Assembly: GCA_030704615.1 (NCBI GenBank)
Contig: CM060732.1
Coordinates: 17,980,001 to 18,044,000, forward strand
Source of the DNA: Takakia lepidozioides
Taxonomy: Eukaryota > Plantae > Bryophyta
DNA: 64,000 nt
Direction: 5' to 3'
Made by a program: the position numbers and the translations under genes
Notes under the pieces: generated by a model
The model's database searches: none
Told to the model about the DNA's origin: nothing
Seen by the model: only the letters and a program-made list of their open reading frames with translations
Part shown: in pieces, positions 22,616 to 62,470 of the stretch
How positions within the stretch are numbered: position 1 is the first letter of the stretch
How the letters are laid out: every line of letters begins with the position of its first letter

Positions 22616-22618
22616 TAG

Positions 22619-32900: not shown

Positions 32901-33009
32901 TTGCCTCTAGCAGTCAAGGATTCCAAGAAAAACGTGTCTACAAATGCACTTCAGCCACAAAACAAACAGTTTAGTTTGTTTTTCTCCGAAAAATCAATCG
33001 GACACGCTC

Positions 33010-33650
33010 AGAATTACCTGCAGGAAGGTAATTCAGCGCTTCGAAATACCTGGCGAATGGAAATTCGGCGCCGAATATCCATACACCAGCGATCCGACTT
33101 ACCTGCTGGATGGAAATTCGGCGCCGGATTTCCATCCATCCGCCTCCGAATTACCTGCGTGAGGGAAATTTGGCGCGCCGCCCTACCTGCGCGGATGGAA
33201 ATCCGGCGCCGGATTTCCATCCATCCGCTTCGGAATTAAATGCGTGAGGGAAATTTGGCGCGCCGCTCTACCTGCGCGGATGGAAATCCGGCGCCGGATT
33301 TCCATTCATTACCTGCGTGAGGGAAATTTGGCGCGCCGCCCTACCTGCGCGGATGGAAATCCGGCGCCGGATTTCCATCCATCCGCTTCCGAATTACCTG
33401 CATGAGGGAAATTTGGCACGCCGCCCTACCTGCGTGGATGGAAATCCGGCGCCGGATTTCCATCCATCCGCTTCTGAATTACCTGCGTGAGGGAAATTTC
33501 GCGCGCCGCCCTACCTTGCATGATGGAAATTCGGCGCCGGATTTCCATCCTGCTGCGCTCCGAATTACCTGCAGGATGGAAATCCGGCGCCGGATTTCCA
33601 TCCTGCAGCGCTCCGAATTACCTCTACGTTGGAAATTCCGTGCCGAGTTC
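33010..33650. repeat. About 80-85-bp tandem repeat containing the 30-bp palindrome GGATGGAAATCCGGCGCCGGATTTCCATCC
   Basis: Multiple adjacent copies; same array as 60000-61015. Confidence 0.85.
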
Positions 33651-34790: not shown

Positions 34791-37700
34791 CTCGGCCTCG
34801 ATCCCAACTTTCTCCCCCTGCTCCTTCTCGGATTTTCCCTCATCCTCCGAGGATGCCTCTTCCTCTTTCGGTAGACGTTCAGCCGTTGCAAGTTCCGAGT
34901 TGTGGAGGGCAGTATCTGGCTCGAAGGCGAACACATGCCTGTCGGACAACGTCCCTGCCCACATTGAAGCACCTGAGGAACAAAGCGGGCGGTTAATAGC
35001 TTGCGGCATGCAATTGCAATCGGGCCAGGGGACAAACTGAGCACGTGAAGGCTTACCCATGCCGCATGTGAAGTCCAGAATCCGCCCTTGGACATCCGAG
35101 CACGTCTCCATGAGGGTTTGGATGAAAGCAGGGCTCCGGGTCCGGCTGTACCGCCACGGTTTGCCTGTCTTTGTGTCCTTCGGCATACTGGAGTGGGGCA
35201 CATAGTTGTAGAGGACATCGTAGGTTACAGGGTCCACAGCGGCATCAACAAGACGATCGTCGTTGCGGAATTTGAACGTAGACCCTGTCTTCACAAAGCA
35301 ATATGCCTCAAACACCAATGTCTGCACATCCAACAAAGAAGGGATCAACTCCAGGGTCTACTTAACATACACCACAATATGAAGTGAATGCAATAGATTG
35401 ATAACTTACACTTTGGCCCTTTGTTCGCAACCCCTGTGTACTGATGCAGAACCATTTTCTGAGGAGGACCGGGGTGACACTTTTCGGTGTCCACCTTGCC
35501 ACCGCATTCTCTGTGGTCTTCTTTTCTCATGGCAAGGACAACCACACATCCACCGTCATCCAGAAGCATCCCCGCCAGCCCAAACCCGGCTTTCCAGTAG
35601 TCCTCAGTAAACCTGTTCCAGGTGGGCACACCATCCAGGCCTTCCAGCAGCTCCCCATCTGGAATGTCGAGGAGAATCATGTCGCAAGCTCTCTCCACCT
35701 CAACCCCCCCCCCCCCCCCCCCCGAGTGCTCTTGCAATCCGTGCTCACAGCCGTGAAGAATTCCATCATGGCTTCAAAACCAAGGGTGTCTTTAGGCTCT
35801 GTACCACCAGCCCTCTTCTTGGCTTTCCCCTTCTGCTCCGCCAGAGACTTGCTGTGTGCCACCTTCTTCGCCCTGGCAGCGAGAGCGTCAAGGAAGCTCT
35901 CATTGACGCATTGGATGATGGTTGGAGGTTCTAGCTTTGGCCTGTGCGTAAACGTCACCGCCGAATACCGCCGTGTAGGCTCGCCCTCAAATGCCAACTT
36001 CTTGGCAGAGCCAGTCCCACTCCGAACTGACTTGGGAACCCGGACGACCGGTGACTGGGTAGGAGCAACAGCAGTCGCAGGACCTTGAACAAAGTCGTCG
36101 TCCGAGTCACTCTCTTGGGTCCCCTCCTGCGCCTCCTCCGATGCCCCGATGGTTTTCTTCTTTTTGGGTGTTACTGCACTCACCTGTTTCCTTGTCCTTT
36201 TCCTTTGGCCTTTACTCTTCTCATGCAATTTCTCCTGAATTCCTGCCTGAGCAAGCTCTGCCGCTTTCCTGGAGTTCGCAAGCGCTTTTGCCACCCAACG
36301 GAGGCAACGGAGCCCGGTTTCGTCGGAATTTAGCATCCAGCTTCAATTGAAACTTGGATGGGTCGAGCGAGCCGGGCGGAAGGTCCACATACCAAGGGCA
36401 ATCACGCAAATGTTCCAGATGCCACTCCTTCACAATATCGTCAGTGTACATGGAGTCAGCCCCAGGGTTCCTCTATGCCAGGAAGAATGGTGGCTCGAAA
36501 GACAGATGATCTTTCTCCAAAAGGGAGAACTTGCAGTACCTGCATTCATGAAAAACACAATGAGGTCCCTGAAATGCATATTCGGCACCATTTTCCCAGG
36601 TTGGGGCGGATGTGAGTGGGCCTAGAAATGGAAAAATGGCGCCAAATTTCGGTTTTCGGTGACTGCCACCCTAGGGACTTAGCCATCTTGGGAGCCCTGA
36701 ACTGGAAATTCGGCACCATTTTTCCCGGTTTGGCCCGAAGATGGCTAAGCCCCAGAACCGCAATAGGGCCTAGAACTGGAAAAATGGCGCCGAATTTCCA
36801 GTTCAGGGCCAGCCACCCTAGGGACTTAGCCCGAAAATGGCTACGTCCTTGAACGGCAATAGGGCCTAGAACTGGAAAATGGCGCCGAATTTCCACTTCA
36901 GGGCCAGCCACCCTAGGGACTGAGCCCGAAAATGGCTAAGTCCCTGAACGGCAATAGGGCCCGGAACTGGAAAATGGTGCCGAATTTCCAGTTCAGGGCC
37001 AGCCAGTCTAGGGACTTAGCCCGAAAATGGCCAAGTCCCTGAACGGCAATAGGGCCTAGAACTGGAAAATGGCGCCGAATTTCCAGTTCCGGGCCAGCCA
37101 GTCTAGGGACTTAGCCCGAAAATGGCCAAGTCCCTGAACGGCAATAGGGCCTAGAACTGGAAAATGGCGCCGAATTTCCAGTTCCGGGCCAGCCAGTCTA
37201 GGGACTTAGCCCGAAAATGGCCAAGTCCCTGAACGGCAATAGGGCCTAGAACTGGAAAATGACGCCGAATTTCCAGTTTAGGGCCAGCCAGTCTAGGGAC
37301 TTAGCCATTTTCGGAGCCCTGACTGGAAATTCGGCGCCATTTTCCCTAACACCACATGAGGCCTCTAACATCCTGAAATGCAAGGACTTGAAAGAAAGGC
37401 AGTGCGTATGTACCTGTACAGAAGGCGCATTGCTGCTTTGTCCGCGTTCGGCTGGTCGGTGAACTCGTGGCTCCGGCGAGCATCTGCTATCTCTCGAAAG
37501 AATAGGTTGGTTTTGTAGAGCAGAAAGTACCTCGTCACATAGTCGCGTAGGCTCTCTGCTGCAGGAGATATCTCCATCTTGAACTGATGTGCTTGTGTGT
37601 CCAGCTGCTCTTGCGCATTCGTCGTCACCTGTGGAGATTCTCCATCAGATCGCTTTCCTGAAAAAATACAATGAATCCACCCCCTACTAGAGTAGAAGCC

Positions 37701-40423: not shown

Positions 40424-41151
40424 TGTCGCGGCCCTTTGCCTTGAGGGCAGGGGGTCGGGACACATGAGGGGCTGCCCCTGTGGTGGGGGCAGTGGCAGCG
40501 ATAGGTACGGGGGGCTGAAGCACCCTTGAGTGCCCAAGGCACTCAAGGAGCCGGAGGTGCTCACTAGGTGGAGCCCCGCACACCGGGATGCGGTGGGGGT
40601 GGCTTCACAAAGGGGTGGTGGTAGCTTAGCGGGACTTAGTGGGGGTGGCATAGGACTCACCTTGGGGCGGAGACCTCGTGGTGGGAGTCGTGGGGAGTCT
40701 TGGGACTCATCACGGTCCATAGGGGCCGTGGTGGGTGGGCCAAGACTCACCGCGACTCATCACCGGGAGTCGAGGGTTTTCGTGGTGGTTCGCCATAAAA
40801 TGGCATGGTTGTTTGTGAGACCCCCGCGGACAGCTACAAAAGTATATATAGGGAGTAGTAACCCCGAGAACGGTGCAAGCCCATTGGTGACCAAAAACTA
40901 GTGAGTAAGCGAGCGAGCCGGAAAGCGACCAAAGAGTGGGGAGCTGTTCCGGACTGCCAACTACCAAAGGGAATTTCCCGCTGGGCCCAAATCGGTGGAG
41001 GGTTCTTTGGGAGATCAAAGGGGGACCGTTATGCCCCGGTGAGCAGCCGAAGCTCCAAGTTGGCCCGGCGGCCAGGTTGGGAGTTAGGCGCGCGCATCAA
41101 AGCGAGTAACTATGACTTGAAGGGGAGCTTCCCGAAGTGAGGTGCGCGACA
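40424..41151 (+). repeat. Chromovirus 5' LTR
   Basis: TGTCGCG...CGCGACA inverted ends; the first 430 bp are near-identical to 56596-57026. Confidence 0.9.
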
Positions 41152-41153
41152 CT

Positions 41154-41165
41154 TGGTATCAGAGC
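41154..41165 (+). promoter_or_regulatory. PBS for initiator tRNA-Met
   Basis: TGGTATCAGAGC 2 nt after the LTR end. Confidence 0.9.
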
Positions 41166-41206
41166 TTAGAGTTCAGTACGTGATCGTCCTTGGGATTGGC
41201 CTCATC

Positions 41207-42977
41207 ATGGGGTTGGGCAAGCCAAAGCGAAAGCGGAACGGCCCAAAAGATGATGATCCTGGTGAGCCCGATGGGGGCGACGTGTCACCGAGGTGGCCGT
41301 TTGAGGAAGCGATGCATGTTTCCGAAAACGAGGCCGCTCAAGAGCGGGAGGAATCCAAGGAGTCGGAGCCCGAGGAATCCCTGAGAGCTCTGACCGACCA
41401 ACAGATGCCTCCCATGCCGGCAGCCTTTTGGGAAGGGTTGTTGGCGCAGTTTGGCGGGACGTTGAAAGACGTGTTGAAGGCGGCTAATGCCACTTCCACT
41501 AAGGCAAAGTTTAAGGTGAAGCCTAAGGAACCCGGCACCTTCGAGGGCGTCCGAAATCGGAAGGCACTCAACACCTGGCTCCTGGAGCTAGAGCAGTACT
41601 TCCGGGCGGCCAAGTTGAGTGCTCCAGTCTTGAAAATCCCGGAGTTCGATCGTCCGTTCGAGATTCATACGGATGCGTCGGACTTCGCGATTGGGGGTGT
41701 ACTTATGCAAGATGGACGTCCAGTGGCTTATGAAAATAAGAAACTAAATGAAATGGAGCGACGATGGCTGACGCACGAAAAAGAGATGAAGGCGGTGGTG
41801 CATTGCCTTGAGCTTTGGCGCCACTATGTTGGTTCTAACCCAGTGAAGGTGTTCACGGACAATGTTACGGTGAAGTATTTTGCCACATGACAATAACCAC
41901 AGGACTTAGCGACTTGCACAACAGTAAATTTTTCAGACAGGGGCAAGTCTCCTACGACTTGCCCCTGCACCAACAGGTTGCCCTCACCATACTGGGCACT
42001 TGTCATCACAAGCAACTGCCACATTACCTTTCCTGTGTCTCTCAACATACAATGGAAATCACCCCTGCTGCCCACCAGCTTTGCTATGAGTCTGATATGA
42101 TGTGTATCTTGTCTGAATTGTAGATGTATAAGGGTACTGTTTGCCCGGTGAACAGATATCATATTGTACTGTCTAAAGTGTGTCTATCGACACCGGTTAC
42201 AAATAAAAACATGCGGCCGTGGATCTACTGGCGGTTTGATATCTAAGTACCCCAAAACAACTTAGGTGACAAGATACTTTGGCAGTGTTTGACGTGGATA
42301 TCCAGTACAAACCGGGACGTGACAATATGGTAGCCGATGCTTTAAGTAGAAAGCAGCAGCTCCTGTTGGTGTACAGGGGCGAGACGGCGCTCCAAAGGAA
42401 GATCCGGAAGGCTTGCCGGAAGGATGAGCTGGCGAAGTCCGTGATGCAGGACTTGAGGAGGGGGGTTAAATCGCAGTTCCACTTGCAAAATGGACTGCTC
42501 CGGTATAAGCAAAAGCGTCTCTTGAGAGAATGCCATGATAGCCCGCTTGCGGGCCACGGCGGAGCCAAGCGCACTGCGGCACTCTTCATAGAAATTGGCG
42601 GCAGTACTTCATGCACGAAGATGAGTACTTCGAATATCTCCTGGGGGACCCGGAAAGAGTATTTTTGGCCCAAACTGAGGGAGGAGTCAGAGGAGTATGT
42701 CAAGACATGCACCACATGCCAACAAAACCGGAGCGAGTACAAAAAGCAAGCGGGGCTGTTACAACCCTTGCCGATTCCAGAGGGACTTGGGAAAGCGTCT
42801 CGATGGATTTCATGACTGCTATGCCGCTGTCAAAAGGATTCGATGCAATCATGGTGGTGGTGGATAGGTTCAGTAAAATGGGCCATTTCATCCCCACCAA
42901 GGAGACGGCAACGGCGCAGGAGACAGGGCGACTTTACTTCGCCCACGTCTTAAAGCATCATGGAGTCCCGAAGAATA
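41207..42977 (+). pseudogene. Chromovirus gag N-terminus fused directly to RNase H, then integrase N-terminus (PR and RT deleted)
   Basis: PGTFEGVR..LNTWLLELEQYF jumps at about 41620 to SAPVLKIPEFDRPFEIHTDASD. Integrase zinc finger and WESVSMDF...VDRFSK follow. Insertions at about 41888-42240 and 42587-42650. Confidence 0.85.
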
Positions 42978-43510
42978 TGTCGTGCGCATACATATCGCTA
43001 CACAACTACATCGCTGTCCAAACCACACCACACATATATGCACAATAAAGTAGTCTGCCACAATGATAAGAAAGCTAACAAATGACACTGCTCTCCACAC
43101 AAGAAACAATGTGAACTCCAAAACCATCACTCTTTAAAACAGTAGTCGAGCCAGGGGCACCCCAAGCTATGGGGACTCCACCCCACAACAACCTACACTC
43201 CCATCATGAGTAAACTCAGATCTAAACACACACAGGAGCTCGGTCGCGCAGGCTCAACTCGAGAAAGATGAGCCGCGCGACTGCCGCTCTCGTGAAGATA
43301 AGACGGACCAGGTGTCAAACTAAACTTGACACCTGATTTAACACTTGACCTAAATCCAAGTGTTAAATACAAATAACTAGTTTTATTCTAGCTGTTTTCA
43401 CACTGTGCTTATTTAACTTGACAGCTGTCGTGCGCATACATATCGCTACACAACTACATCGCTGTCCAAACCACACCACACATATATGCACAATAAAGTA
43501 GTCTGCCACA
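42978..43510 (-). repeat. 3' terminal repeat block A-B-A (85 + 360 + 85 bp)
   Basis: Two identical 85-bp TG...CA units flank a 360-bp TG...CA unit. The PPT (AGGGGGGCGA on the element strand) is at 43512-43522. Confidence 0.9.
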
Positions 43511-43768
43511 ATCGCCCCCCTAGCTGGTGGATAGGTCCCTCTACCTCCAGATAGCTACAAGATGTAATAGCCACAGCCGTACTAAGTCCTCTATCACTGT
43601 CCCTATTGTACTCAAACTCTATAGACCAAGAGGCCGGGTACAAGAGTAGCCCCATCGTTAGTCGCCGTCTTGCAATCTGTGAACTTGAGCCAGATCTCGT
43701 GTGTTCAAGGTCTCCTAGTAGCTGGGCTTGCGTTTCTTGTTAGCCTCCCATGGTTGTATCCACTCCCA

Positions 43769-46700
43769 CTATCCAATGCAATGTGGACATAACCAATCCC
43801 CATCCGGAACCATCTCAAGAGGTGGAGTCAAGCATCCCATATGCCAACCTCTAGAGCACCGATCACATACCAGCATGGTGGCTGCCCCTTTAGCAGACCC
43901 ACACAACATGCACCTCAAACCTGCAGATACCACTGCCAGGTTTGGGTCAATCCTGCCATCGACATTCGGAAGGTGACATGGCGCACAATTACGCACATGG
44001 TCCTTCCAAGTGATGCCATCCCGACCCTCCAAGACCAAGACGCCTGAGGGCAAGACCTCTCGAACCCTCAAAATAACACGTCCTGCAGTCACATCCAGGG
44101 TCGTAGGAGCAGTCTGCTGCAGATAGACATAGTCACCAGGGTTGAATCTCCGAACCCCAGGACGATAGCCCCCACCACGTATGGTAGCATACCTCAACGT
44201 ATCACGGTGTTGTGCAATGGCAAGGTTCTCGAAAGCCATAGGCATGACTCTCTTGAACAACTCTGCACGCTGCTCACATGCACGTGCCCACACGTCCGGA
44301 TCGTCAAGGTTAAGAACTGTAGCAGCTTCTCTGCGAATGGATGTAGGCAAATCCGGCTCTCGGCCAAAGAGAAGAAAGTATGGTGAGAAGAGGCAAGTGA
44401 TGCTTGCTTGCTGAACCTGTAGCCCATGGCTAACCAGGGTAACTGAAGGTCCCAATCTCCTAGGTGTCCCTTCTGCAAGCCATACTTGCGCAAACCCCTC
44501 TTTACTGTCTGAACAACTCTCTCTGCCAAGCCATCGGCTTCAGGATGATCCCGAGAAGTGGTGCGGTGGTCTATCAAGGCTTTGTCACACAAAGCCTGAA
44601 ACTCCCCCAAGAACTCTCTCCCTTGGTCCGTGAGTACCTCAGCTGGAGCACCGAATCGGCTAAGCACACAATCCAGGAATGCATACGCAGCTCCCTCACT
44701 AGCCTTATCAGGCAATGGAACCAATTCAATCCACTTGGAGAAGTGCTCCACCATCACCAACACGTACTTGTTGTGGCGCATGGTCAGTGGCAACGGCCCT
44801 GCGAAGTCAAGACTCCACCTGTAGCCCAATCCCATGATCGGAAGAGGGTGCAATTGTGGAGTAGGGGCGTTGAATGAAGCACGCACCCTGTCACACACCA
44901 TGCACCTAGCCACAAATTGTTGCACCTCTGTGTGCATACCACGCCACCAATACTGCCCCTGCAGTAGACTATGAGTGCGTCGCACCCCAAAATGCCCCAA
45001 CTCCTCATGGGCATGCCGCACTAACCGTGCCCGCTGTGTTGGGTGAGGCACAATCCTCACTCGACCATCCTCCCACACTCGGAGCAGGTGTGTCCCCTCC
45101 CACCTGAACCTCTTGGCTCGTTGTAGGATCCGATCCCTCTCCTTGGCAGTCATAGTGGCTGCCGTGTCTCCACTGCGGAGGTAGTCCAACACAACTGAAT
45201 CCTCATGTATATCTTTGGCGCCACCCTGCTCATTGCTGGCCTCAGGGTCCTCAGACACTTGATCTACAGTCATCCCTGTTGTAGGTCCAACCTGGCCTTC
45301 CGCTGCCAAGATACACAGAAATGCAGATGCATGCCATCCGGGCACCATCTCCTCGTCCGTCTCACCATGCCACCGAGCTCCAGTGTCATCCTGCTGGCTC
45401 GTGCATGGATTGCGACTCAACCCATCTGCATTTCGATTGACCAAACCCGGTCGATGCACCACCTGAAAGTCATACTCTTGAAGGATGAGTGCCCACCGTG
45501 CAAGCTTCCCCGTAAGCTTGTCTGACTCCATCAACCACTTGAGTGGTTGGTGATCCGTGACAAGGGTGAAGAGATTGCCGTATAGATAGCACCTGAAGTG
45601 TGCCACGGCCCACACTGCAGCTAAGCATTCTCCCTCATATGAGCTATACTTAGACTCTGCAGCATTGTTCGAGCGGCTAGCATAAGCCACTACGAACTCT
45701 CTTCCCTCATCATCCACCTGTGTGAGCACCGCTCCAAGCCCCAGCATGCTCCAATCTGTATGCAGCTGAAAAGGACGCCCCCTGATAGGTCGTCTCAAGA
45801 TGGGCGCCGAGGTCAACCTCGCCTTGAGCTCTTGAAAAGCTTGTTCTTGCTCATCTTCCCACTGCCACTCCTGGTCCACCTTGGTCAGCTTGGTTAGAGC
45901 CTTTGCAATGGCACTAAATCCCTTAACAAACCGTCTGTAATAGTTTGCTAACCCCATGAAAGCTCGAACTCGGCTCACATCCGTGGGGCGTGGAACCTGT
46001 GCAATGGACTCTACCTTAGTCTGCTGTACCCCCAATCCTCCAGGATATATCATGTGACCCAGATACTCAATCTGGTTGTGGAAAAACTTGCACTTGCCCG
46101 GATGTAACTTCAATCCGTGCGTCCTCAAGCGCTCAAATACCCCCTGAAGGTGTCTCTCATGCTCCTCCACCGTAGCACTAAAGATGATGATGTCATCTAT
46201 GTAGCACCGAGCAAACTCCACCCCTGCTAGAATCCTGTCCATGACTCTTTGAAACTCAGCGGGAGCGTTTTTAAGCCCAAATGGTAAGAACCGCCACTGG
46301 TATAGGCAATCCTTCCCGTGCTCATTGATCCCCCAGAATGCCGTCTTTTGCTTATCCGCCTCCTTGATCGGCAACTGGTGATATCCGGATCGTAAATCCA
46401 ACGTGCTAAAGACCTTGGAATGCCCAATGGCATCAAAGATCTCCTCTGGTGTTGGCATGGCATACCTATCGGACTTGGTCTGACGATTTACAGGCCGGTA
46501 ATCACCGCACATACGTCTCTCCGTCCAATTGCCATAGACATCCTTCTTAGCTGGCATCACTGTGGCTGAAGCATACTCTCCACCAGAGAGCTCCACCAAA
46601 CCTGCCTCCCAGAGATCTTGAGTCCTCATCTGAATCAAAGACCTCTCCATGTCACTGTATCTATAGGGTCTCCGAAAGATTGGCGTGTCAGTGGCCAACT

Positions 46701-46902
46701 CAATACGGATCTCTTGACCCTTCAGTGCTCCCAAGTCCTTCAAACTGAAGGCAAAGCAATTCCTGTAAGCCCTCAGGAACCGCCGTATACGTCGTCTCTC
46801 TCCTCCGGTGACAATGGGTCCAATATCAGGCTCCCAATTGTCCTCCGTAACTGCAACCTTAAGTCCAGTGGGCTTAGAGGTAGAGGACGCGTCCCGTGGT
46901 TG
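43769..46902 (-). CDS. RT - RNase H - integrase - PHD finger (one 1-nt frameshift near 44395)
   Basis: LDLRSGYHQ, YIDD, HTDWS, HEELGH..CMVC, SLDF/LTDQG/AER. C-terminal CMLC...CDRC..GWHMGCL.PPL..VP.GDWLCPHC is a C4HC3 PHD finger. Confidence 0.9.
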
Positions 46903-47199
46903 CTATGCTGCAACCTCTTGAGCAGTACCCCCTTCCTGCTCAGTCAATGACAAGGCCTCATCCTGCCCCATCATCTCATCATTGAGAACCTCCTCATCCC
47001 GAGAAGAATCCCCAACCTCATCCATCACAGCTGCCTTCGCTGCCAACTCCCTCTGAACCTCGAGCACCTCCCACATGTGCCATGGATGTCTACACCTCGT
47101 GGTCCTCACCGGCTCGCCCCCACTCGCTGCCTGTACCGTCTCGGTAGGCAGAGAGACCATCAAGGGAAGTGCACTCCGCACTCTACGTTGCTCAGCCAT

Positions 47200-48150
47200 A
47201 GCCAAGCTGACAATCCAGGTCAAGCAATTGAGATCCATTGCTTGCCCCAACACCTGACGACGTGATGCCTCAGAAAGAGAAGGCACCGCCGTGGTCCCAG
47301 TGGAAAACCCCATAGCCCGCTCTCGCTCGTCGGCATTAGGCTCCACTAACTGCTGCAACTGAGCATCCCACAGGAGGCCAGGTCCACCATCCCGAAAAGC
47401 ATGGGATCCTGGGAAGCTGAGCAGTGTAGGTAATGCTGCTCGTGGTTGACCCACCCTGTTGACCACTGCCAAAGGCGAACGGTCATCGTGTCTCACACGT
47501 TGAGACTGCCTTCCTGTGTCCAAAATGCCATCCACGGTGAGGTGTGCTGGCCGCTGCACCCCATCAAATGCACGCTTGAGCAGTGCGGGTGGCATCAAGT
47601 TAGTCCACCATAGTCGTGGACGATGAGCCCGTGACCCCACTGCAGCTGCATCCAGCAACACTGCTGACCCAAGCCACGACCGGACTTGATGCACACTGGC
47701 CATCACCCTGGCCCGAGAATCACCCATCAGTGGTACATTCTCCAAGATGTATGCTGGAGATACAGCTTGATGAAGCTGCAAGGCGCAAAATCCGCACCAT
47801 CTCCCAAAACAGACCCGTCCTCGAGTCTCGCAATCCATTGCCATGCCCGGCTGATGAATGCCCTTGGCAGGGCCAACCTGCCACTATCAGATCAATGGAG
47901 CCAACCTGCTCCAAATCTTGCGCCCCCAACAAGAAATGTCTGCTGGCAAGGCTTGTTGGTATCCACGAACTGCAGACACAGGCAACAAGTCAGGGTACTG
48001 CTGTACCAACTGAGCCACATGGCGCAGTGAGACGCGTCGTGCAGTCTCATCCCTCTCCACATACAGGTAACGCCTTACCCGCACACCTGCCTGTAGCACA
48101 GCAGCCAATCCGGTGCTGATCCCGCCAAACAAGTCCAGAAGGCAAATGCC
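47200..48150 (-). CDS. DNMT3-like C5-cytosine DNA methyltransferase domain (two 1-nt frameshifts at about 47935 and 47780)
   Basis: Motif I LLDLFGGISTG, II YVERD, IV DLIVAGWPCQG, VI ILENV, VIII AHRPRLWWTNL, IX ERERAMGF, X RRQVLGQAMDL, in non-permuted order. Confidence 0.9.
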
Positions 48151-48399
48151 TTCATCCGGCCGCTGCCACACAAGAGGTGTGGTGTCCAATGGCGACAACT
48201 GAGGTGGCCCTGGTGCAATCACCGCACTCTCCTCCTCTCCTGACGGTACAAAAGCTTCTACCCAAGCTTGTTGCACCCGTCCATCAGCAGCTTGCTGCAA
48301 ATCCTTGCTCGTACCCCACAACGGAGTGTGAGCAACCATGGCAGGCAACTCCGCCGTACCATGCATGTCATCCTGCTCTGCTGGAGGTGGCACATCCTC

Positions 48400-49000
48400 T
48401 GCATGGGCATTGCCTTCCAGCAACTCTCCAGGCCAACTAACTGCAGCTGTGAAGGCGGCTAGTGTTGGCATCTTGCCCCGCTGGGCAGCTGCAATACCCC
48501 CAATGAATGTCACAGGGAGCTGTGCACGGCGACCATCCCCTGACTGCCATCCAGGCCTGTAGGATGCTGACTCCTCCCAGAAATCCAGGGTGAAGCCCAT
48601 GGGGTATAACACTGCCCCACCAACGAGGACATCGTAAGAGACCGCGTCTGTCACAATGGCCTTGGCTCGCATCACTGAGCCATCTACAGGATGATCCGGC
48701 TGCAGTCTAATAGCCAACTGATGCCGTGTCATGCCGCGAGCCTGCTCTGATCCTCCCAGAGATGTCTGTATCTGGAAAGGACAAGGCTCCATATCCGCCT
48801 CCATGAGGCCCAAACCTGCAATAGCAGCTCTGCCCAACATCAGTGGCTGAGCTCCTGAGTCCAACAAGACCCGCAGTGGCCGGTACTTCTTGCCTGCCGG
48901 TCCACTCAAAGTGAAAATGCCTCCCTGGTTGTCTAACAAGACAACTCCAGGTGTCACCATGGCGCGCTCAATGGCTGGCCTAGCTGGCAGCTCCGTCAAC
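48400..49000 (-). CDS. Aspartic protease domain
   Basis: VLLDSGAQPLMLG ... YDVLVGG in ORF 47887-49206. Confidence 0.85.
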
Positions 49001-49175
49001 CTGGCAGCTGCAGCTTGCCAGGGCGCAGCCGTGGCAGTCTTGACCCTCAAATCCGAGGATCCCTCTGCCACTACACCTTCCACTAACTCCGCAGAAGATG
49101 AAGTGACCTCCCCACTCTCACAGAGTGTTGCTGCTAGTCTGAACACTGCAGCTGGTCTCACCCCCGGCGTCGCAA

Positions 49176-51105
49176 TCATGTTGCCGAGAACAGTGGGGCC
49201 TGACACACAGAGGTGGCTGCCCCCAATAACACACCGGCCGCACTAGCCTTGGCAGCAGGAGTCAATGCTGCACGTGTAGCTCTCCCCAATGGCATAGTAA
49301 CCTCCGCCTCGGTAACAGTCGGGCGAGAACTAGGTGCCATGGATGGCGTTGACACAGTCTCCGCCAATGTGAATGACTGAGGAAGCCTTGCCTGACGGCT
49401 TGCCTCCCCACGCTGTGGATCCAATTCCACCTCTGCACCTCGTGGCTCAGGAACTCGTGCTGCTCCTCGAGTCACGGCTGCAGCAGACTCCACCTGCTCT
49501 AGTGGTAGTGCTGCTCCGCACATAAATCCCATGCCTCCCATATCTCCTCCCTCAGGAGCAGGAGGTGGGCCATCCCGCCTGGGAGCCGGTACCGCCTGAG
49601 CTATAGCCATGGCAGCGAGCCTCTGCTCTAGCTGCTGAAGCCGATTGGCCATGCCTTGGTCAACACCCTGACCTCCGCGTCCTTGGCCATGTGGAGGTTG
49701 CCCTTGGCCTGCACCTCGTGCCCGACCACCTCGTCCTCTTTGGGCTGGTCCACCTCGCCCCCGGCCACCATTGTTCCCTTGGAACTGGCCTGGGCGCAAC
49801 TCAGGATGCAAGTCATAACACTGGGCATCTCCATGCCCATACTTGCCACAATGCCCACACTGCAACTGTGCAGGCTGTGCTTGTGCCGGCCTTCTGCCAC
49901 TCTCTGGGCAATCTCTCTTGACATGGGGTCCTCCACATGTCCAACATATCACCCCTGGTTGCTGTTGGCCTGCAAAAGATGCCACGGGCCTCTGCACCTG
50001 AGGTCCCCTGTAAGCTCCATGGAACTTGGGCTGGGCAACCTTGCCCCCTGACCACGCTGTTGGGCAGTCCCTTGTGCTTGTGGGCTGACAGCTGTGCCTC
50101 GTACAGGCATGTCCTTACCAAATCCAATTGTAACAACTCGCTCCTCCACCATGTTGAGCTCAATCCGCTCAGCCAGCAGAAACACATCTGCTAATGTGGG
50201 TTGGGCTGCTTGTAACAGGGTTGCATCTCGCACCCTTCTCTTGAGCTCCTTGTCCAGAATTCCATACCAAAACTGGATTGCCTGAGCTTCAGTAACCCCT
50301 TGGGTCACACTTATCAAGCGCCTCATACGAGTGTACGCCTCTCGCAGGCTCTCACTGGGTTTGCGCTGGAAGTCTTGCAAACTTTGCAGCTTCTCTGTCC
50401 GTACACCTTGGTAGTTCCTCCGCAACTCCTGGAAGAACTCCACCACCGGTTGAATCTAGGCACATGTGTTGTAGCTGTGGCAGGAGGAGTAGTAGCACCT
50501 TCTGAACTGGTACCACCTGCAGAAGTACCAGCACTACCTGCTCCACTACTAGTGCTGGCAGTGGGAGCTATTGTTACTGATGCAGCTACTGGTCGCGTCA
50601 TGCCTCGAGTAATGGAGATGTAGTCAGGTGACCAATACATCCTCCACTCCTCAATCTCTGCTTCATGTCCTCGCCTGAACTCGTGGTAATCGTCCATAGG
50701 CGGGCCTTCCAAATGCTGGAACAGTCCCTTCCACGCCATGAATGGGGTGAATAGATGTGGATTGCGCATCTGCTGCAAATCACACCAGCTGTCGAACTCC
50801 TGGATAAAGTCATCCAACTCGATTGTGCCCACAGCTCCAGAGTACCTACGAGGCCCCTTGGTAGCTCCATACATCTCCTCCATGTCGTCCCACAACAATG
50901 GCGAGTGAAAGTGCACACCTGTTGATGAAGCCTCCGAGCCTGTGTCTGACTCTACAGTAATTGAGGGTGGCGGTGAAGGTGGTCTGAACCAAATACCTCG
51001 TCTTGTGAACCCACTCTCACTGTTACTGCCTGTAGCCGTACTCCTCTCAAAACCCTTGGGTAACTCCGTAATGACACTCACAATGTGCACCTCCTCCAGT
51101 GACAC
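49176..51105 (-). CDS. gag with two zinc knuckles (1-nt frameshifts at about 50455, 50050 and 49178)
   Basis: PRRYSG...LDDFIQEF..WC, FQRKPSESLREAYTRM, CWTCGGPHVKRDC, CGHCGKYGHGDAQC. Confidence 0.85.
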
Positions 51106-51616
51106 TATAAGGCTCTAGTACTAATCTAATAGTGACACGGGTGGGCACCTGTTGCAGTCTAAGGGTCATATCCCAGTGGCTCAGGGCACCTGCACCTGCA
51201 TCCACCGCAAGAACTCCTATGGTTGGCTGGTCATCAACCCAGCCTCACCATAGAAGAAACACTGGTGGTCTTGCTGGTCATCACTCCAGCCTCACCACCG
51301 ACAGCATACTCTAGGATTGACCGGTGATCAAATCCGGCCTAATCCCTATGAAAGCAAGCGCCCACACAAAACCAACATGGCGCACAGTCAAGCATGCAGG
51401 TGTTGGGGGGGATCCAAACACAAGAAATCAAAACATCAACACCCCCACACCAAAATCCAGCTGCAATGCTGATCCTGCAAATATCCCAGCCCAAAACCCC
51501 GGACTGACTGGCCTCCACCAAGAGAGGCTTTGGCAACTACAAGTACAAGGTGATGAAAATAGTACAGAGATGGAGGGGAAGAATAGAAGCCCGACCAAGC
51601 AAGATCTAATCCTGAT

Positions 51617-52366
51617 CTATGCTATCAACTGCCAGACTTCTCTCAAAGTGCCTCGCTCTGCATGATGGTAAGGTGTAGGAGGTATATCTATGTCCAGAAA
51701 CCTGCCACTAACCTTGTCCCAAGCTACAGTAGCTCGCTCTAACCAACCCTCCTCCTCTTTCTGCCAGGTAGAGACAAAGCAATACTCCCCTATCTCCCGC
51801 TCACTGAACACTAAAGAAAACAAAGGTAGGGTCTGATAGTCTCTCAACTCGAAAGCTTTGAGACGGTTGCGGGTGTCCTCATTGCGAATGACTGCATCTC
51901 CTTCACGCACAACAAACATGTCATTGCTGATGAACCCCCGCTCGTGGTTGCCCTGTGCAGAGCGTATCCGGCTGCAATCATGTCTGATTGCACAAACTTG
52001 TGTAGCTCCTGCTCCTCTGCTCCAGTACACCACGGCCTTGTGACTGAACACCTTGGTCCCCGGGGCTGTCTTTGGCTGTGTTCCAAGCCTAGCTTTCACC
52101 CACTTTGGTATTTCACCTACAGCTGCAGAACTGCTGGCTCCAACAGAGTTCTGACTGTCCAAGGCGATATTGAGGCCCTCAATGCCAACTACAGCAGTCT
52201 GTTGTCTACTGCTAATGCCTGACTCCCAGTATGCAATCAACTCGTCCAACTGTTCTCCACTCAAATCAGTCTGAGTTCCTTGGGAAACATAAATCCTGTC
52301 CCCTTGTGTGCACAGACTAAGAGAAGAGACCTGCCCTTCAATTACGTCCTCATTTCCCCCAGCCAT
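51617..52366 (-). CDS. Unknown 249-aa ORF upstream of gag
   Basis: Intact ATG-to-stop ORF on the element strand with protein-like composition. No motif recognised. Confidence 0.5.
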   Translation of the reverse strand: MAGGNEDVIEGQVSSLSLCTQGDRIYVSQGTQTDLSGEQLDELIAYWESGISSRQQTAVVGIEGLNIALDSQNSVGASSSAAVGEIPKWVKARLGTQPKTAPGTKVFSHKAVVYWSRGAGATQVCAIRHDCSRIRSAQGNHERGFISNDMFVVREGDAVIRNEDTRNRLKAFELRDYQTLPLFSLVFSEREIGEYCFVSTWQKEEEGWLERATVAWDKVSGRFLDIDIPPTPYHHAERGTLREVWQLIA

Positions 52367-54422
52367 GCAAGGAGTACACCCACCAATTTGTCTCTCATAT
52401 AGACCAGCACAGGTTCTAGAGACAGGATTGTGGATCTTTCATGGCACACTCACACTCTAAAAATTCCATAGATTTTTAGCAGAGTCCCAAAAACAGAAAC
52501 CAGGTCTAGATAGGTAGATTTCCCCTTTCTGCAGATATCCCCTCAAAAACTGAGTCAAACGGAGCTCATTTGACAAAGATATGACCAACCAGGCTCTTTA
52601 AACATTTAAATTAGATCAAAAAAGGTTTTTTTTTTTTTTTTTTTTAACACCAAAACGCTTTTGCCATTACAACCTGTTCCCAGGTTATCTACGAGTTCCC
52701 GAGGTCGTTCCCCTCCAGGATCCTCCAGGCACCAAGAGCTCGTTAATTCCAACACTCGACCTCAGTTGGGTGGGGTATCACGATTTGCTTTCTCTGCGCG
52801 TGGGCCTGCCTCCTCGAGACCTAGAGACTACAAACCAGGAATTGGGCGATTTCAAGAGCAGATGCACTGCGCAGCACCTTCATGGCTTATGGACAGGCGG
52901 CCTGCTGTGATGTGGCCGTCTCTGCATGGAATCCAAAGCCAAGACCAGCTTGAAGTTCCATCAACTTGGTCTAATTCGCATCTCTCGCCAACGATTATTG
53001 TTGGCTTAGAATGGTTTCCGCCTTCCTGTTACTGCTCGTGTTTGCTTTTGTGTGCATTCTACAGGTCAGGGATCGGCGACAACAGGCACCAGATTGCCCC
53101 GTCACCACCCCCACAAGGCACAGACGACTTCACTGCCAGGAAAAAGAAAGTGAACCATGCTCAGCATGTAGACCCAAGGCCTGGGTCCATCTGCATCAGC
53201 TCCAGTATAAGAGAGACAATCATATAGTTATCAAGTCTCTACAGGAATTTGCGATTGCCTCAGTAAAGTGGAACTCAATCTGCAGCCTCCTTCCGCCGCC
53301 TCTCCATCAACCCTTGGAGGCTCTCGTCCGCTGGCCTCATCCGTCAGCATTGCTTCTCCTGCTACGAGTCTTCGCATTTCCTCCCCTGCTCGCCTGTGCA
53401 GAAGTAAGTACCCTTGACGCCGAAATGACAGTAGAGGCAAGTGATCAATTGGAAGTGTTCAATGATGAGACAAATAGAGCTGGAGCTCCCTTGACCTGTA
53501 TCGCCACAATCTTGGACTCGGGCAGTGTACTGAGTTGAAAGCTGGGTTGTGAACCACCATTCGACTTTCCACCAGTTTCCACATCAAAATGGTGGAACCA
53601 AGGTGCAAGGCAGCAACAGCTACTTGGCTTTGTACAAACCTGAAGCACTTAAAAAAACGAAAACGACTTTGCACCTTGCACTCTCCGAAATCAACAATGC
53701 CCCCAACAACCCTTTTTGTCAGAAAGTTGGTTGCTTATGCAGATAATCGACCAGGTGAAAGCAGCTTTCCCAGCCACAATCACAAGTAGCATGAAGCTTT
53801 GTGAGACTCCTGGTTTTGCAGTGTTGATGATATGCCAGCAATGGGCTCCCCGTTCTCCATCGCTTTGTGCTAGGCTTTCTCTCTCGGGCCCTGCACCTTC
53901 AACCAGCTCGCTGCGCCATGCTCTACCTGCCGGCGCTGCATTTACTGGAGGGAGCAGATTTACAGCTCCTCCTTCAACTGGCTCCGCTACACCAGCTCCA
54001 CCTGCTCTTCCGCTGCCTTTCCTGACCGCTTCTGGTCTGTCCTGGTTCTAATTTAACACTGGTCTGTGCACATCGAACTAAGGCGAGCAGCCCGGCCATC
54101 TCCAGGCACGGAAGTTCTACCCATCTGCTCGATCACAGGCTCCTCCTTTAAGTCTCGCACTTGGTCAGTTTCCCAATGGCCAATCGCTGCTACTCCACGA
54201 TGTCTCCTCACCGACCAAAACAAAGGCTGCTTCCATGCAGTGTAGCTCCATCATGCCCGGCGGCCTCATGCCAGAACCAACGCTGATCGAAACCTGCATA
54301 TTTTGTTTTGTTTTGTTTTTTTTTTTTTCTTCTAAGCTTCTAAAACTAAGCACTACTTACACACAGATAATCGTACAAGTGCTAACCCTCAACTCCTACC
54401 TTGCACTCACAGGTAAGAGGTG

Positions 54423-54434
54423 ATCTTTCTCGAG
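54423..54434 (-). promoter_or_regulatory. Putative self-priming site (replaces tRNA PBS)
   Basis: CTCGAGAAAGAT directly follows the 5' repeat and is the exact reverse complement of element-strand ATCTTTCTCGAG at 54640-54629. No TGG-starting PBS. Confidence 0.75.
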
Positions 54435-54794
54435 TGATAAGAAAGCTAACAAATGACACTGCTCTCCACACAAGAAACAATGTGAACTCCAAAACCATCA
54501 CTCTTTAAAACAGTAGTCGAGCCAGGGGCACCCCAAGCTATGGGGACTCCACCCCACAACAACCTACACTCCCATCATGAGTAAACTCAGATCTAAACAC
54601 ACACAGGAGCTCGGTCGCGCAGGCTCAACTCGAGAAAGATGAGCCGCGCGACTGCCGCTCTCGTGAAGATAAGACGGACCAGGTGTCAAACTAAACTTGA
54701 CACCTGATTTAACACTTGACCTAAATCCAAGTGTTAAATACAAATAACTAGTTTTATTCTAGCTGTTTTCACACTGTGCTTATTTAACTTGACA
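54435..54794 (-). repeat. 5' terminal repeat B (360 bp)
   Basis: No differences from 43064-43423 seen by eye. Confidence 0.95.
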
Positions 54795-55691
54795 AATATT
54801 GTCTCGGACCGCGATCCAAAGTTTACGAGTAAATTTTGGAGGACACTTTGGAAGAAGATGGGGACGAGGCTGAAGATGAGCACCGCCTTCCGACCTATGA
54901 CCGACGGCCAAACAGAAAGAGTGAATTCCGTAGTGAAGCAGATCTTGCGGAATTACGTGTCGGCAGACCAATCAGACTGGGTGGAACACTTAGACGCGGT
55001 AGAGTTCTGTTATAATAACACAAAACACTCCGCAACGGGAGTTTCCCCTTTCGTATTGGTCTATGGAAAAGCACCTCTGGTGCCGACAAGTTGGGCCGCC
55101 CAGGACGTTGAGGAACCGGCAGTAGCGGCGGTACTAGAAGAACGCGAGCGTTTGTTGAAGCTCGCAAAGTACAACATTGCCAAAGCTAGGAAACGGTATG
55201 AAAGGCAGGCGAATCGGAAGCGGAGGGAAGTGAAGTTTGAGGCAGGCACGAAGGTCTGGTTGAACATCAAGAATTTCCGACTACCTCTGGAAGTGAGTCC
55301 AAAGTTCGTACCTCCGTATGCGGGACCCTTTCGCATCCGGAAGGTTATGAATGAGGATGTGTATGAATTGGAGCTCCCGGCAAACAGCAAGGTGCATCAA
55401 GTATTCCACGTCTCCCTTTTGAAGCCTTACTTCAAAGATGAAGCGCGTCCGAATCGGCATCAAGTGTTGCGTCCGCCACCTGTGCTGTTGGATCATGAAA
55501 ATGAACCTGAGTACGAGGTGGAGGCAGTACTTAAGTCGAGGAGGTTCGAGAACCGAGAAACGGAGTATCTCGTCAAATGGAAGGGCTATCATTATGTGGA
55601 GGCATCTTGGGTGCGTGCCTCAGAAATGGGAAACGCATCCGAGGCGGTTGCAGTTTTCGAAGGGCGACCTCAAAAGCGGAAGAAGCGTTGA
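54795..55691 (+). pseudogene. Chromovirus integrase C-terminal half with GPY/F motif and chromodomain
   Basis: IVSDRDPKFTS, TDGQTERVN, YAGPFRI, YEVEAVLKSR...YLVKWKGY...ASW. Continues the frame interrupted at 42977. Confidence 0.92.
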
Positions 55692-58489: not shown

Positions 58490-58759
58490 GGGAGATGTGC
58501 ACACAAGACAGCCAGGATGACGTGCGGGCAAGCTCCCTGGTAGAAGGGGGATGCAGCGATGGGAAGGAATGCGGTGCCGATTTGTCCGTGCGACGAAGCC
58601 TGATCCAAATCCAAGGAGCCAACTATCTCAAAAATCCACAATCAGAGTGTTAATGAACCTTGTCTCCGGAATGCGGCCCCTGGTCTTTGCGCAATAACTG
58701 CCAACGGTATGCAGTAAGAAAGTGGCGGGCCGTCCGGATGATGTCGGCTGAAGGGGAGA

Positions 58760-59890
58760 AGCCGGCACCGGGCCGTCACATTACTACCCCCGGATGGAAA
58801 TTCGGCACCGAATATCCAATAGGGGCCGCCCGGTTGAAGTCGCCTCGGGCAGAGAGGCCGGCACCTGTTCGACAGAGGACATCCCCCGGATGGAAATTCA
58901 GAGCCGAATTTCCATCCGGGCCCCCGAAAGGAAGTCCTGTCGGGGGGTTAGGCCGAAAACTGGCCGACATAAAAACCTCCCCGGATGGAAAAACGGCACC
59001 GAATTTCCATCCGGGGCCGTTCGGATGCAGTCGGCCCGGGGGAAGAGGCCGGCACCTGGCCGTCACATTACAACCCCCGGACGGAAAATTGGCACCGAAT
59101 ATCCAACAGGGGACGCCCGGATGAAGTCGCCTCGGGCGGAGAGGCCGGCACCTGTCCGACAGAGAGCATCCCCCGGATGGAAATTCGGCGCCGAATTTCC
59201 GTCCGGGCCCCCCCAAAGGAAGTCCTGTCGGGGGGTCAGGCCGAAAACTGGCAGACATAAAAACCTCCCTGAATGGAAAAACAACGCCGAATTTCCATCC
59301 GGGGCCGTTCGGATGCAGTCAGCTCGGGGGGAGAGGTCGGCACCTGGCCGTCACATTACAACCCCTGGACGGAAACTCGGCACCGAATATCCAACAGGGG
59401 ACGCCCGGATGAAGTCGCCTCGGGCGGAGAGGCCAGCACCTGTCCGACAGAGAGCATCTCCCGGATGGAAATTTGGCACCGAATTTCCATCTGGGCCCCC
59501 ACAAAGGAAGTCTTGTCGGGGGGTCAGGCCAAAAAGTGGCCGACATAAAAACCTCCCCGGATGGAAAAACGGCGCCGAATTTCCATCCGGGGCTGTTCGG
59601 ATGCAGTCGGCTCGGGGGGAGAGGGCGGCACCTGGCCGTCAAATTACAACCCCCGGACGGAAATTCGGCACCGAATTTCCAACAGAGGACGCCCGGATGA
59701 AGTCGCTTCGGGCGGAGAGGCCGGCACCTGTCCGACAGAGAACATCCCCCGAATGGAAATTCGGCGCCGAATTTCCATCCGGGCCCCCCCAATGGAAGTC
59801 GTGTCAGGGGGTCTGGCTGAAAACAGGCCGACATAAAAACCTCCCTGGAAGGAAAAACGGCGCCGAATTTCCGTCCGGGGCCGTTCGGAT
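58760..59890. repeat. 288-bp tandem repeat (about 4 copies)
   Basis: Equivalent ORF starts at 58985, 59273 and 59561 give a period of 288. Confidence 0.9.
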
Positions 59891-59999
59891 TTCCCCCTAG
59901 CAGTCGAGAATTCCCTGAAAAACGTATCTAAAAGTGGACTTCAGCCAAAAAAAACTAAAGGTTTAGTGTCTTTTTAGACCAAAAACCTAGCGGCCACGC

Positions 60000-61015
60000 T
60001 CAGAATTACCTGCAGGATGGTAATTCGGCGCTTCGACTTACCTGGCGGATAGAAATTCGGCGCCAAATTTCCATCCAGCAGCGATCCAAGGTACCTGCTG
60101 GATGGAAATTTGGCGTCGGATTTCCGTCCATCTGGGCTCCAAATTACTTGCAGGATGGAAATTCGGCACCGGATTTCCATCCATCCGCTCTCCGAATTAC
60201 CTGCATGACGGAAATTCGGCGCTCCGAGTTACTTGCAGGATGGAAATTCGGTGCCGGATTTCCATCCATCCGCCCTCCGAATTACCTGCCTGACGGAAAT
60301 TCGGCGCTCCGAGTTACCTACAGGATGGAAATTCGGCGCCGGATTTCCATCCGGCCGCGCTCCGACTTAGCTGGCGGATGGAAATCCGGCGCCGGATTTC
60401 CATCCATCCGCTCTTCGAATTACCTGCATGACGGAAATTTGCAGCACCGACTTACCTGGAGGATGGAAATCCGGCGCCGGATTTCCATCCATCCGCGCTC
60501 CGAATTACTTGCACGATGGAAATTTTGCGCGCCGACCTTCCTGGCGGATGGAAATCCGGCGCCGGATTTCCATCCATCCGCTCTTCGAATTACCTGCATG
60601 ACGGAAATTTTGCGCGCCGACTTAGCTGGCGGATGGAAATCCGGCGCCCGATTTCCATCCATCCGCTCTTCGAATTACCTGCATGATGGAAATTTTGCGC
60701 GCCGACTTACTTGGAGGATGGAAATCCGTCGCCGGATTTCCATCCATCCGCGTTCCGAATTACCTGCATAACGGAAATTTTGTACCTGGCGGATGGAAAT
60801 CATGCGCCGGATTTCCATCCATCCGCTCACAAGTAACCTGCATGACAGAAATTTGCAGCGCCGACTTACCTGGAGGATGGAAATCCGGCGCCGGATTTCC
60901 ATCCATCCGCTCTACGAATTACCTACATGACGGAAATTTTGCGCGCCGACTTATCTGGCGGATGGAAATCCGGCGTCGGATTTCCATCCATCCGCTCTGT
61001 GAATTACCTGCATGA
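60000..61015. repeat. About 84-bp tandem repeat with 30-bp palindrome
   Basis: GGATGGAAATCCGGCGCCGGATTTCCATCC recurs about every 84 bp. Confidence 0.9.
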
Positions 61016-62470
61016 CTGGAAAAATGGCGCCGAATTTCCGATTTTGGTGCTAGTCAGATCTGGGACTTAGCCATTTTCGGCCCCGAAATGGAAAAATGGC
61101 GCCAGAAAAAAAAAACAAAAACAAAAAAAACGCCATTTTTCCAGTTCGGGGTCGAAAACGGCTAAGTCCTAGATCTGACTGGCACCAAAATCGGAAATTT
61201 GGCGCCATTTTTCCAGTTCTGGGCCCAGTCATATCTGGGACTTAGCCATTTTCGGCCACCAAATGGAAAAATGGCGCCATTTTTCCAGTTCAGGGCCTCG
61301 AAAATGGCTAAGTCCCTACGGTGGCTGGAACCGCAACTGGAAATTCGGCACCATTTTTCCAGTTCCGCGCCCTATCAGATCTAGGACTTAGCCATTTTCG
61401 GCCCAAAACTGGAAAAATGGCGCCGAAAAAAAAAACAAAAAAAAAAAAAAAACGCCATTTTCCCAGTTTGGAGCCGAAAATGGCTAAGTCCCAGATCTGA
61501 CTGGCACCAAAATCGGAAATTCGGCATCATTTTTCTAGTTCCGGGCCAAGTCAGATCTGGGACTTAGCCATTTTCGGCCCCGAAATGGAAAAATGGCGCC
61601 ATTTTTCCAGTTTAAGGCCCCGAAAATGGCTAAGTCCCTAGGGTGGCTGGAACCGCAACCGGAAATTCGGCGCCATTTTTCCAGTTCCGCGCCCTGTCAG
61701 AGCTGGGACTTAGCCATTTTTGGCCCCGAACTGGAAAAATGGCGTCATTTTTCCAGTTCGGGGCCAAAAATGGCTAAGTCCTTAGGGTGGCTGGCAGCAA
61801 AATCGGAAATTCGTCGCCATTTTTTCAGTTCCGGGCCCAATCAGATCTGGGACTTAGCCATTTTCGGCCCCGAAATGGAAAAATGGCGCCGAAAAAAAAA
61901 ACAAAAAAAAAAAAACGCCATTTTTCCTGTTCGGGGCCTAAAATGGCTAAGTCCCAGATCTGACTGGCACCAAAATCGGGAATTCGGCGCCATTTTTCCA
62001 GTTCCGGGCCCAGTCAGATCTGGGACTTAGCCATTTTCGGCCCCGAAATGGAAAAATGGCGCCATTTTTCCAGTTCAAGGCCCCGAAAATGGCTAAGTCC
62101 CTAGGGTGGCTGGAACCGCAACCGGAAATTCGGCGCCATTTTTCCAGTTCCGCGCCCTGTCAGATCTGGGACTTAGCCATTTTTGGCCCCGAACTGGAAA
62201 AATGGCTAAGTCCTTAGGGTGGCTGGCAGCAAAATCGGAAATTCGGCGCCATTTTTCCGGTTCCGGGCCCAGTCAGATCTGGGACTTAGCCATTTTCAGC
62301 CCCGAAATGGAAAAATGGTGCCATTTTTCCAGTTCAGGGCCCTGAAAATGGCTAAGTCCCTAGGGTGGCTGGAACCGCAACCGTAAATTCGGCGCCATTT
62401 TTCTAGTTCCGCGCCCAGTCAGTTCTGGTACCTAGCCATTTTCGGGCCCAACCTAGGAAAATGGTGCCGA
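61016..62470. repeat. Complex tandem/inverted array of GGAAAAATGGCGCCATTTTTCC and GGGACTTAGCCATTTT units
   Basis: Related to the arrays at 27700-27935 and 36580-37345. Confidence 0.85.

Follow-up and report, generated by a model that had tools for sequence, protein, structure and literature searches.

A DNMT3-like cytosine methyltransferase within a Ty3/gypsy retrotransposon with split terminal repeats in Takakia lepidozioides

The window analysed (the whole stretch of 64,000 nucleotides of Takakia lepidozioides DNA) contained a young, recently inserted Ty3/gypsy retrotransposon on its minus strand (42978-54794). Gag, aspartic protease (PR), a cytosine methyltransferase (DNMT), reverse transcriptase (RT), RNase H (RH), integrase (INT) and a PHD finger were arranged in the order gag-PR-DNMT-RT-RH-INT-PHD, with an in-frame stop between DNMT and RT. 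The features of the locus, in window positions, were as follows:

42974..42977 (left) and 54795-54798 (right): 4-bp target-site duplication, lying in the integrase gene of a gypsy element with a chromodomain
42978..43063, minus strand: repeat A2 (86 bp), the 3' end of the element, terminating in CACGACA; 100% identical to A1
43064..43423, minus strand: repeat B2 (360 bp), putative distal U3-R-U5 of the 3' LTR; 100% identical to B1
43420..43429, no strand: palindromic internal junction GACA-GC-TGTC, linking A1 to B2; putative integrase attachment site
43426..43511, minus strand: repeat A1 (86 bp), beginning immediately past the polypurine tract
43512..43520, minus strand: polypurine tract (PPT), GGGGGGCGA on the minus strand
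43772..43930, minus strand: PHD finger at the integrase C-terminus (PF00628, E=4.8e-11)
44197..46902, minus strand: ORF2, with RT, RNase H and integrase (zinc finger and core), by profile matches
46897..46905, minus strand: in-frame TAG (46905-46903) with CAA CCA directly after it; predicted signal for read-through at the DNMT/RT border
47200..48150, minus strand: DNMT3-like C5 cytosine methyltransferase, motifs I-X in order, with two compensating frame breaks
48592..48894, minus strand: aspartic protease, LLDSGA at about 48880; weak Pfam matches (E=0.02-0.04), alignable to homologues
49200..51100, minus strand: Gag with two CCHC-type knuckles (Retrotrans_gag, E=5.8e-4) and several single-base frame breaks
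52570..54300, no strand: low-depth leader segment with A/T-rich tracts at both sides; absent from most family copies
54423..54434, minus strand: primer-binding site (PBS) directly past B1, not of tRNA type; complementary to a motif within B
54435..54794, minus strand: repeat B1 (360 bp), the 5' end of the element, beginning with TGTCA
54629..54640, minus strand: predicted 12-nt self-primer in B1, with a second copy in B2 (43258-43269)

Profile matches gave the order PR-RT-RH-INT, a DDE integrase and an upstream Gag, all characteristic of Ty3/gypsy elements, as were the TG...CA termini (TGTC...GACA) and a target duplication (4 bp) within the 4-6 bp range. Two complete direct terminal LTRs were not found; the repeats were laid out as B...A-GC-B-A. 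A frame break near 44389 cut off the integrase tail and the PHD finger from ORF2. The insertion target was a plus-strand chromodomain-bearing gypsy element (window 41141-43045 and 54738-55688), whose ORFs matched RT-RH/INT and rve/SH3/Chromo and which was itself multi-copy, as shown by empty-site joints among contigs. Membership of the DIRS/Ngaro/PAT group was rejected, an rve integrase being present and no tyrosine recombinase match being found, and Troyka was rejected on its CG...CG termini, 3-bp duplication and restriction to animals (vs. TGTC...GACA and 4 bp here).

Elsewhere in the window there were a second, unrelated gypsy element lacking a DNMT (19231-24808), with CpG strongly depleted (0.18), and an intronless plastid ferredoxin gene with a transit peptide (2238-2687). 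Arrays of 96-, 85-, 95- and 72/74-bp repeats with SWIM-finger ORFs (31900-33640, 36600-37400 and 58700-62470; 9087-11300 and 28092-31819) were suggestive of DNA transposons with subterminal repeats. In a comparison of CpG and CHG ratios, the CpG observed/expected value of the DNMT-bearing element (0.5) fell inside the range of the window's other elements (0.18-1.08), and the ratios were uninformative.

The methyltransferase had been described in an initial annotation, made from the sequence alone, as a DNMT3-like enzyme with motifs I, II, IV, VI, VIII, IX and X lying between protease and RT in non-permuted order, unlike DRM. All of these motifs were located, in that order, on the minus strand: I, LDLFGGI (48138-48118); II, YVERD (48063-48049); IV, AGWPCQG (47881-47861); VI, ENV (47742-47734); VIII, RAHRPRLWWTN (47631-47599); IX, ERERAMGF (47328-47305); and X, RRQVLGQAMD (47262-47233). 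Motif IV was in a different frame than the neighbouring motifs, with two compensating breaks near 47932 and 47781. The motif-IV piece alone matched PF00145 (E=4.3e-11, 43 bits for a cut-off of 22), as expected of a C5-methyltransferase; the motif I-III and motif VI-X pieces, searched each alone against Pfam, gave no PF00145 match.

The resemblance to DNMT3 was borne out at three levels. P0002, an unbroken close homologue among the stored proteins (P numbers), 66% identical to the window copy across both breaks, had DNMT3A as its best PDB match (E 6e-12), followed by DNMT3B/C, DRM and bacterial enzymes. A 30-sequence family profile scored 105 bits for DNMT3A, 69 bits or less for DRM, and 40 bits or less for bacterial enzymes as well as for M.HhaI and DNMT2. 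The top folds listed for the predicted P0002 structure (pLDDT 88.9) were solely DNMT3A/B/C, with target TM up to 0.86. The canonical motif order with PC, ENV and RxR, and the proximity to DNMT3 by profile and fold, are those of a DNMT3-type enzyme, whereas the circularly permuted order of DRM was not observed; the domain is almost certainly a DNMT3-like, non-permuted C5-methyltransferase. Host plant DNMT3 (PpDNMT3a/b) is described as carrying DUF3444 (PMC6453930); the window domain shares the DNMT3-type catalytic domain, but is intronless and located in a retroelement, and the Pfam search gave no DUF3444 match in it.

The domain was present in all 80 metagenome loci kept (L numbers; out of 430 confirmed), and the order gag-PR-DNMT-RT-RH-INT-PHD was repeated wherever the contig was long enough. 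Contigs bearing the same species label, and others from a second organism, also covered it; a 5,009-base contig of run X9 (another organism) read through it in frame with 57 substitutions relative to the window, 30 of the 39 listed differences being synonymous. Only 6 of the 80 loci passed a filter requiring all three DNMT pieces to be free of stops, and most loci are decayed copies. Omega was 0.12 for the pairs L059/L062 and L058/L059; between the window and those 6 loci it was 0.22 or less, with silent sites saturated in 3 of the comparisons. The motif IV Cys, the motif VI Glu and both motif VIII Arg were invariant in the 30-sequence alignment, and the catalytic Cys was found in 39 of 39 sequences, a count biased by the inclusion of WPCQ in one search pattern. 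These values indicate purifying selection (omega about 0.1) with retention of the catalytic Cys. Thus neither a lack of PF00145 match, nor absence from sister copies, nor neutral evolution with Cys loss, the outcomes named in the initial annotation as contradicting it, was observed.

The window copy had two small frame breaks in the DNMT, through which other copies read, and ten single-base gaps between 43692 and 52843 relative to contigs of other copies, 8 of them shortened one-letter runs. At the gap at 52843, which lies within the low-depth segment, the extra base was present in all of the X1 and X6 depth. Although the copy carried about ten such gaps, both repeat pairs (A1/A2 and B1/B2) were 100% identical, and many of the frame breaks may therefore be long-read assembly errors. 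The breaks might be taken as signs of a host DNMT3 fragment carried passively by a decaying element, or of an assembly chimera; this is highly improbable given the same architecture across many species and loci, the purifying selection on the domain, and the contig of the other organism spanning it in frame.

Contig depth summed over the element exceeded that over the low-depth leader segment several hundredfold, a ratio which does not represent a copy number. X5, a run guessed to be RNA, covered gag, PR, RT-RH and integrase, and hardly the DNMT. Pieces of this 1.7-kb segment (52570-54300) matched X5 contigs that continued elsewhere, and the segment had no similarity to related loci; it is possibly a captured host transcript or a nested element.

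The methyltransferase had also been presented as embedded in a polyprotein. It does share its frame with RT, but the in-frame TAG (46905-46903) precedes RT, so the domain closes ORF1 (Gag-PR-DNMT) and is not located within an uninterrupted Pol. Among 59 elements examined, 52 had TAG or TAA as the nearest stop upstream of RT, with CAR immediately after it. Six of these, including the window, had the strict CARYYA context, which is the plant-virus read-through motif of tobacco mosaic virus type; the literature search gave no report of CARYYA in retrotransposons. The other 46 were mostly CAA-CCC/CTC. No stop separated DNMT and RT in L072, P0089, P0265 and P0299. Predicted proteins from metagenomes were single Gag-PR-DNMT frames ending soon after the DNMT. 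On the sequence context, the stop is likely read through, placing the DNMT on the abundant Gag-PR protein; low-rate read-through would keep RT/integrase scarce and Gag-PR-DNMT plentiful, and the protease would free the DNMT inside the particle. Re-initiation of ORF2 is possible in the CAA-CCC/CTC family, because an ATG follows the stop there; in the window there was no Met shortly past the stop.

Named relatives 65-77% identical were found in Marchantia polymorpha and Calypogeia fissa, and further ones in Sphagnum, Riccia, M. paleacea, Closterium, Mesostigma, Haematococcus, Chromochloris, Cymbomonas and Hariotina; none of the rows listed bore the name Klebsormidium. DNMT and RT were 73-82% identical to liverwort and peat-moss-type copies. 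Among 125 stored proteins with DNMT plus RT or RNase H, the DNMT was before RT in 22 and after RNase H in 103; all named chlorophyte proteins were of the latter type, with the DNMT between RNase H and integrase (e.g. P0243, P0266, P0267, P0182 and P0236). In a quick-search RT-RH tree of 49 rows, with 28 unnamed after-RNase-H proteins sampled at random, both position types fell on opposite sides of one branch (support 98), and the rows nearest to the window were L027 and the Marchantia copies. In a DNMT tree (FastTree), whose outside rows were phage/viral enzymes and one Symbiodinium protein only, both types grouped together vs. 9 viral enzymes, and the after-RNase-H type formed one clade (99). 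These trees suggest that the domain was relocated within elements, or captured twice; a single ancient capture with later relocation may account for them.

Motif IV read GW/F-E-CQ instead of -P-CQ in 92 of 263 readable stored homologues, including Mesostigma. Viral contigs contained distant methyltransferases only (26-43% identical, best E 4e-20), and one of them, L081, had no RT match. The viral methyltransferases L081-L083 and L092 grouped closer to retrotransposon DNMTs than other phage enzymes did.

The layout B...PPT-A-GC-B-A was also observed in L013, L035, L040, L065, L076 and L005, the last being truncated where its contig stops. The window and 8 loci, three families overall, carried the junction GACA-GC-TGTC or transition-decayed forms of it. 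Target duplications of 4 bp were exact in 6 of 7 complete elements, with one mismatch in the seventh.

No tRNA-type site was found directly past B1, and tRNA and Rfam scans gave no match; the sequence there was complementary instead to the central part of B, so that LTR sequence was complementary to a site just past the 5' LTR, as in self-priming elements. The match was 12 nt long in the window (0 of 200 controls) and 9-16 nt in 11 of 19 loci, the other 8 being no better than control. L059 had at the same place a 15-16 nt match of unrelated sequence, 26 nt below TATAAT (shuffled maximum 11), and in two families a TATA box was located 26-35 nt upstream of the primer motif. The self-priming site covaried across three families, and folding paired primer and primer-binding site in both cases tried (z about -2.5). 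From this covariation we infer that the RNA 5' end would fold back onto the site past B1 and prime reverse transcription, the plus strand would start at the polypurine tract, and a linear cDNA with an A-GC-B LTR at both ends would result.

The primer site and the polypurine tract define, in sequence terms, the true LTR as A-GC-B, and the inserted ends are predicted to lie inside it, at the palindrome. On this definition, the integrated element would represent the two-LTR product in circularly permuted form. In five elements (the window copy, L013, L040, L065 and L076), the boundaries of PBS and PPT coincided with the B/A joint. Two others, L035 and L042, had extra letters there, those of L042 being a fragment of the primer-binding site, as would be expected of joined cDNA ends. 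DDE integrases use recessed CA ends. In the proposed route, the B/A joint would form when the two cDNA ends are linked, either prior to insertion or shortly afterwards; at the upstream GACA-GC-TGTC palindrome, integrase would cut each strand past GACA, and this stagger would leave recessed CA ends; and insertion of the cut ends with a 4-bp duplication would yield B...A-GC-B-A. Integration through such a cut inside the LTR is regarded as the probable route.

Internal inversions with a primer-site remnant at the B/A joint were observed in L042 (12674-13570), L043, L008 (6332-6444) and L010; these inverted copies are perhaps aberrant or auto-integration products. Short forms ending past the first A represented 13 of 20 3' ends, some of them duplicated between samples. 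Their interpretation as one-LTR-circle insertions was dropped, since L024 (short) and L076 (long) showed both forms at one site; as the two share one flank, a short form can result from a subsequent deletion or from collapse during assembly.

Random cutting of closed two-LTR circles would be expected to give a form starting B-A-GC-B, but none of 20 5' ends showed this mirror form (B-A-GC-B...A), though short-read assembly could collapse it. Its absence also fits Ngaro/PAT-like replication, in which the RNA would run from B1 to A2, the internal junction would repair the single-stranded cDNA ends into a circle, and A2 would come from the parent. The layout does equal that of split-direct-repeat elements, as noted for Klebsormidium nitens (PMC5890265). 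Such replication is rather unlikely here. Three families share the fold-back primer site directly past B1 and the polypurine tract directly before A1, an arrangement indicative of ordinary reverse transcription from two primers, which has no means of copying A2 from the end of the RNA; both primer boundaries also fall at the B/A joint. The cut inside the LTR is retained as the preferred route.

The parallel with retrotransposon-borne methyltransferases of a charophyte alga, drawn in the initial annotation, proved correct. KnitGypsy-Dnmt3 of K. nitens is described as having gypsy domains, an intronless non-permuted Dnmt3 under purifying selection, and DIRS-like split repeats (de Mendoza et al. 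2018, PMC5890265), and the window element has the same kind of Dnmt3 in a gypsy element, likewise under purifying selection, with similar split repeats. The two differ in that the K. nitens DNMT is reported in one ORF with RT and RNase H, whereas here an in-frame stop lies between them; in that its capture is regarded there as confined to the K. nitens lineage, whereas the relatives found here span bryophytes, streptophyte algae and chlorophytes (PMC5890265 for both descriptions); and in that target duplication, priming and junction were resolved for the window element, the K. nitens copies being compared by description only. SymbioDIRS-Dnmt3 is a dinoflagellate tyrosine-recombinase element, and Symbiodinium enzymes are reported to methylate CG de novo in yeast (PMC5890265); it also carries a retrotransposon-borne Dnmt3, but the window element has a DDE integrase and 4-bp duplications. 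Gypsy-7a_cRei of Chlamydomonas shares with the window element a PHD finger in a green-lineage gypsy element, but DNMT is not among the domains listed for it (PMC9940879). Left-LTR sequence complementary to the region just downstream is the mark of self-priming LTR elements (PMC5006619).

The window element showed the same complementarity, with no tRNA-type TGG. Tf1 of fission yeast is the model self-priming LTR retrotransposon, and elements of this kind keep two complete terminal LTRs, whereas the inserted ends of the window element appear to be internal to the LTR.

For the function of the enzyme, the explanation considered probable overall combines an abundant, packaged DNMT methylating the element's own new cDNA with an integrase cutting inside the LTR, giving the split ends. 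The DNMT would act on naked cDNA, so the new copy would arrive pre-marked; that the element's own cDNA is the substrate is held with modest confidence. The closest solved relatives of the PHD finger were CHD4, PHF12, KDM5A/B PHD1, PHF21A, BAZ2, UHRF1 and AIRE, known readers of the unmodified H3 tail. The ADD domain guides animal DNMT3A to chromatin with unmethylated H3K4, and the PHD finger may, ADD-like, steer the complex toward such chromatin.

The DNMT could also act in trans, on host chromatin or resident copies rather than on particle cDNA, either as self-limiting silencing or by marking the insertion site through the PHD-bearing integrase complex. The abundant ORF1 placement would also yield free nuclear enzyme, the PHD finger resembles readers of unmodified H3, and insertion-site and host-benefit roles are among those listed by de Mendoza et al. 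(PMC5890265). The position of the DNMT in chlorophyte relatives, between RNase H and integrase (the majority type), fits instead an activity on cDNA or within the integration complex, and action in trans is considered unlikely, at about the level given to Ngaro/PAT-like replication. Less likely still is retention of the domain for DNA/RNA binding (e.g. holding cDNA ends or the internal junction together), with catalysis secondary. The K. nitens KnitGypsy DNMT is reported to have shown no activity in yeast, in a test which its authors called inconclusive (PMC5890265), and E replaces P before the Cys in about a third of readable homologues (above); a binding role would nevertheless not need the invariant Cys, Glu and Arg residues of motifs IV, VI and VIII.

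Returning to the preferred explanation, its broadest version is put forward tentatively: an ancient, green-plant-wide gypsy lineage would package many DNMT3 copies to pre-methylate its cDNA, and its DDE integrase would ignore the cDNA ends, open the palindromic junction inside the LTR, and insert a two-LTR product in circularly permuted form, by a route that has not been described for LTR retrotransposons.

Elements of this kind, including the DIRS-like repeats, have already been published from K. nitens (PMC5890265). The literature search gave no description of them in bryophytes or chlorophytes, though two later papers cite “streptophytes” and their supplementary trees may include bryophyte copies, and no split repeats with a DDE integrase other than those of PMC5890265. 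New here are the relatives in liverworts, Sphagnum, Closterium, Mesostigma and chlorophytes, with the DNMT after RNase H in chlorophytes; the conserved in-frame stop plus CAR between DNMT and RT; and the B...A-GC-B-A ends with 4-bp target duplications.

The retrotransposon-borne DNMT3 of Klebsormidium had been reported from a single charophyte and viewed as locally captured. The end structure reported here suggests integration through an internal LTR junction, and elements without paired terminal LTRs likely escape standard LTR finders. The genomes of bryophytes and green algae contain numerous unannotated DNMT3-like genes, which could affect methylome studies, and the presence of the element in Marchantia polymorpha, a genetic model, makes the role of the enzyme directly testable.
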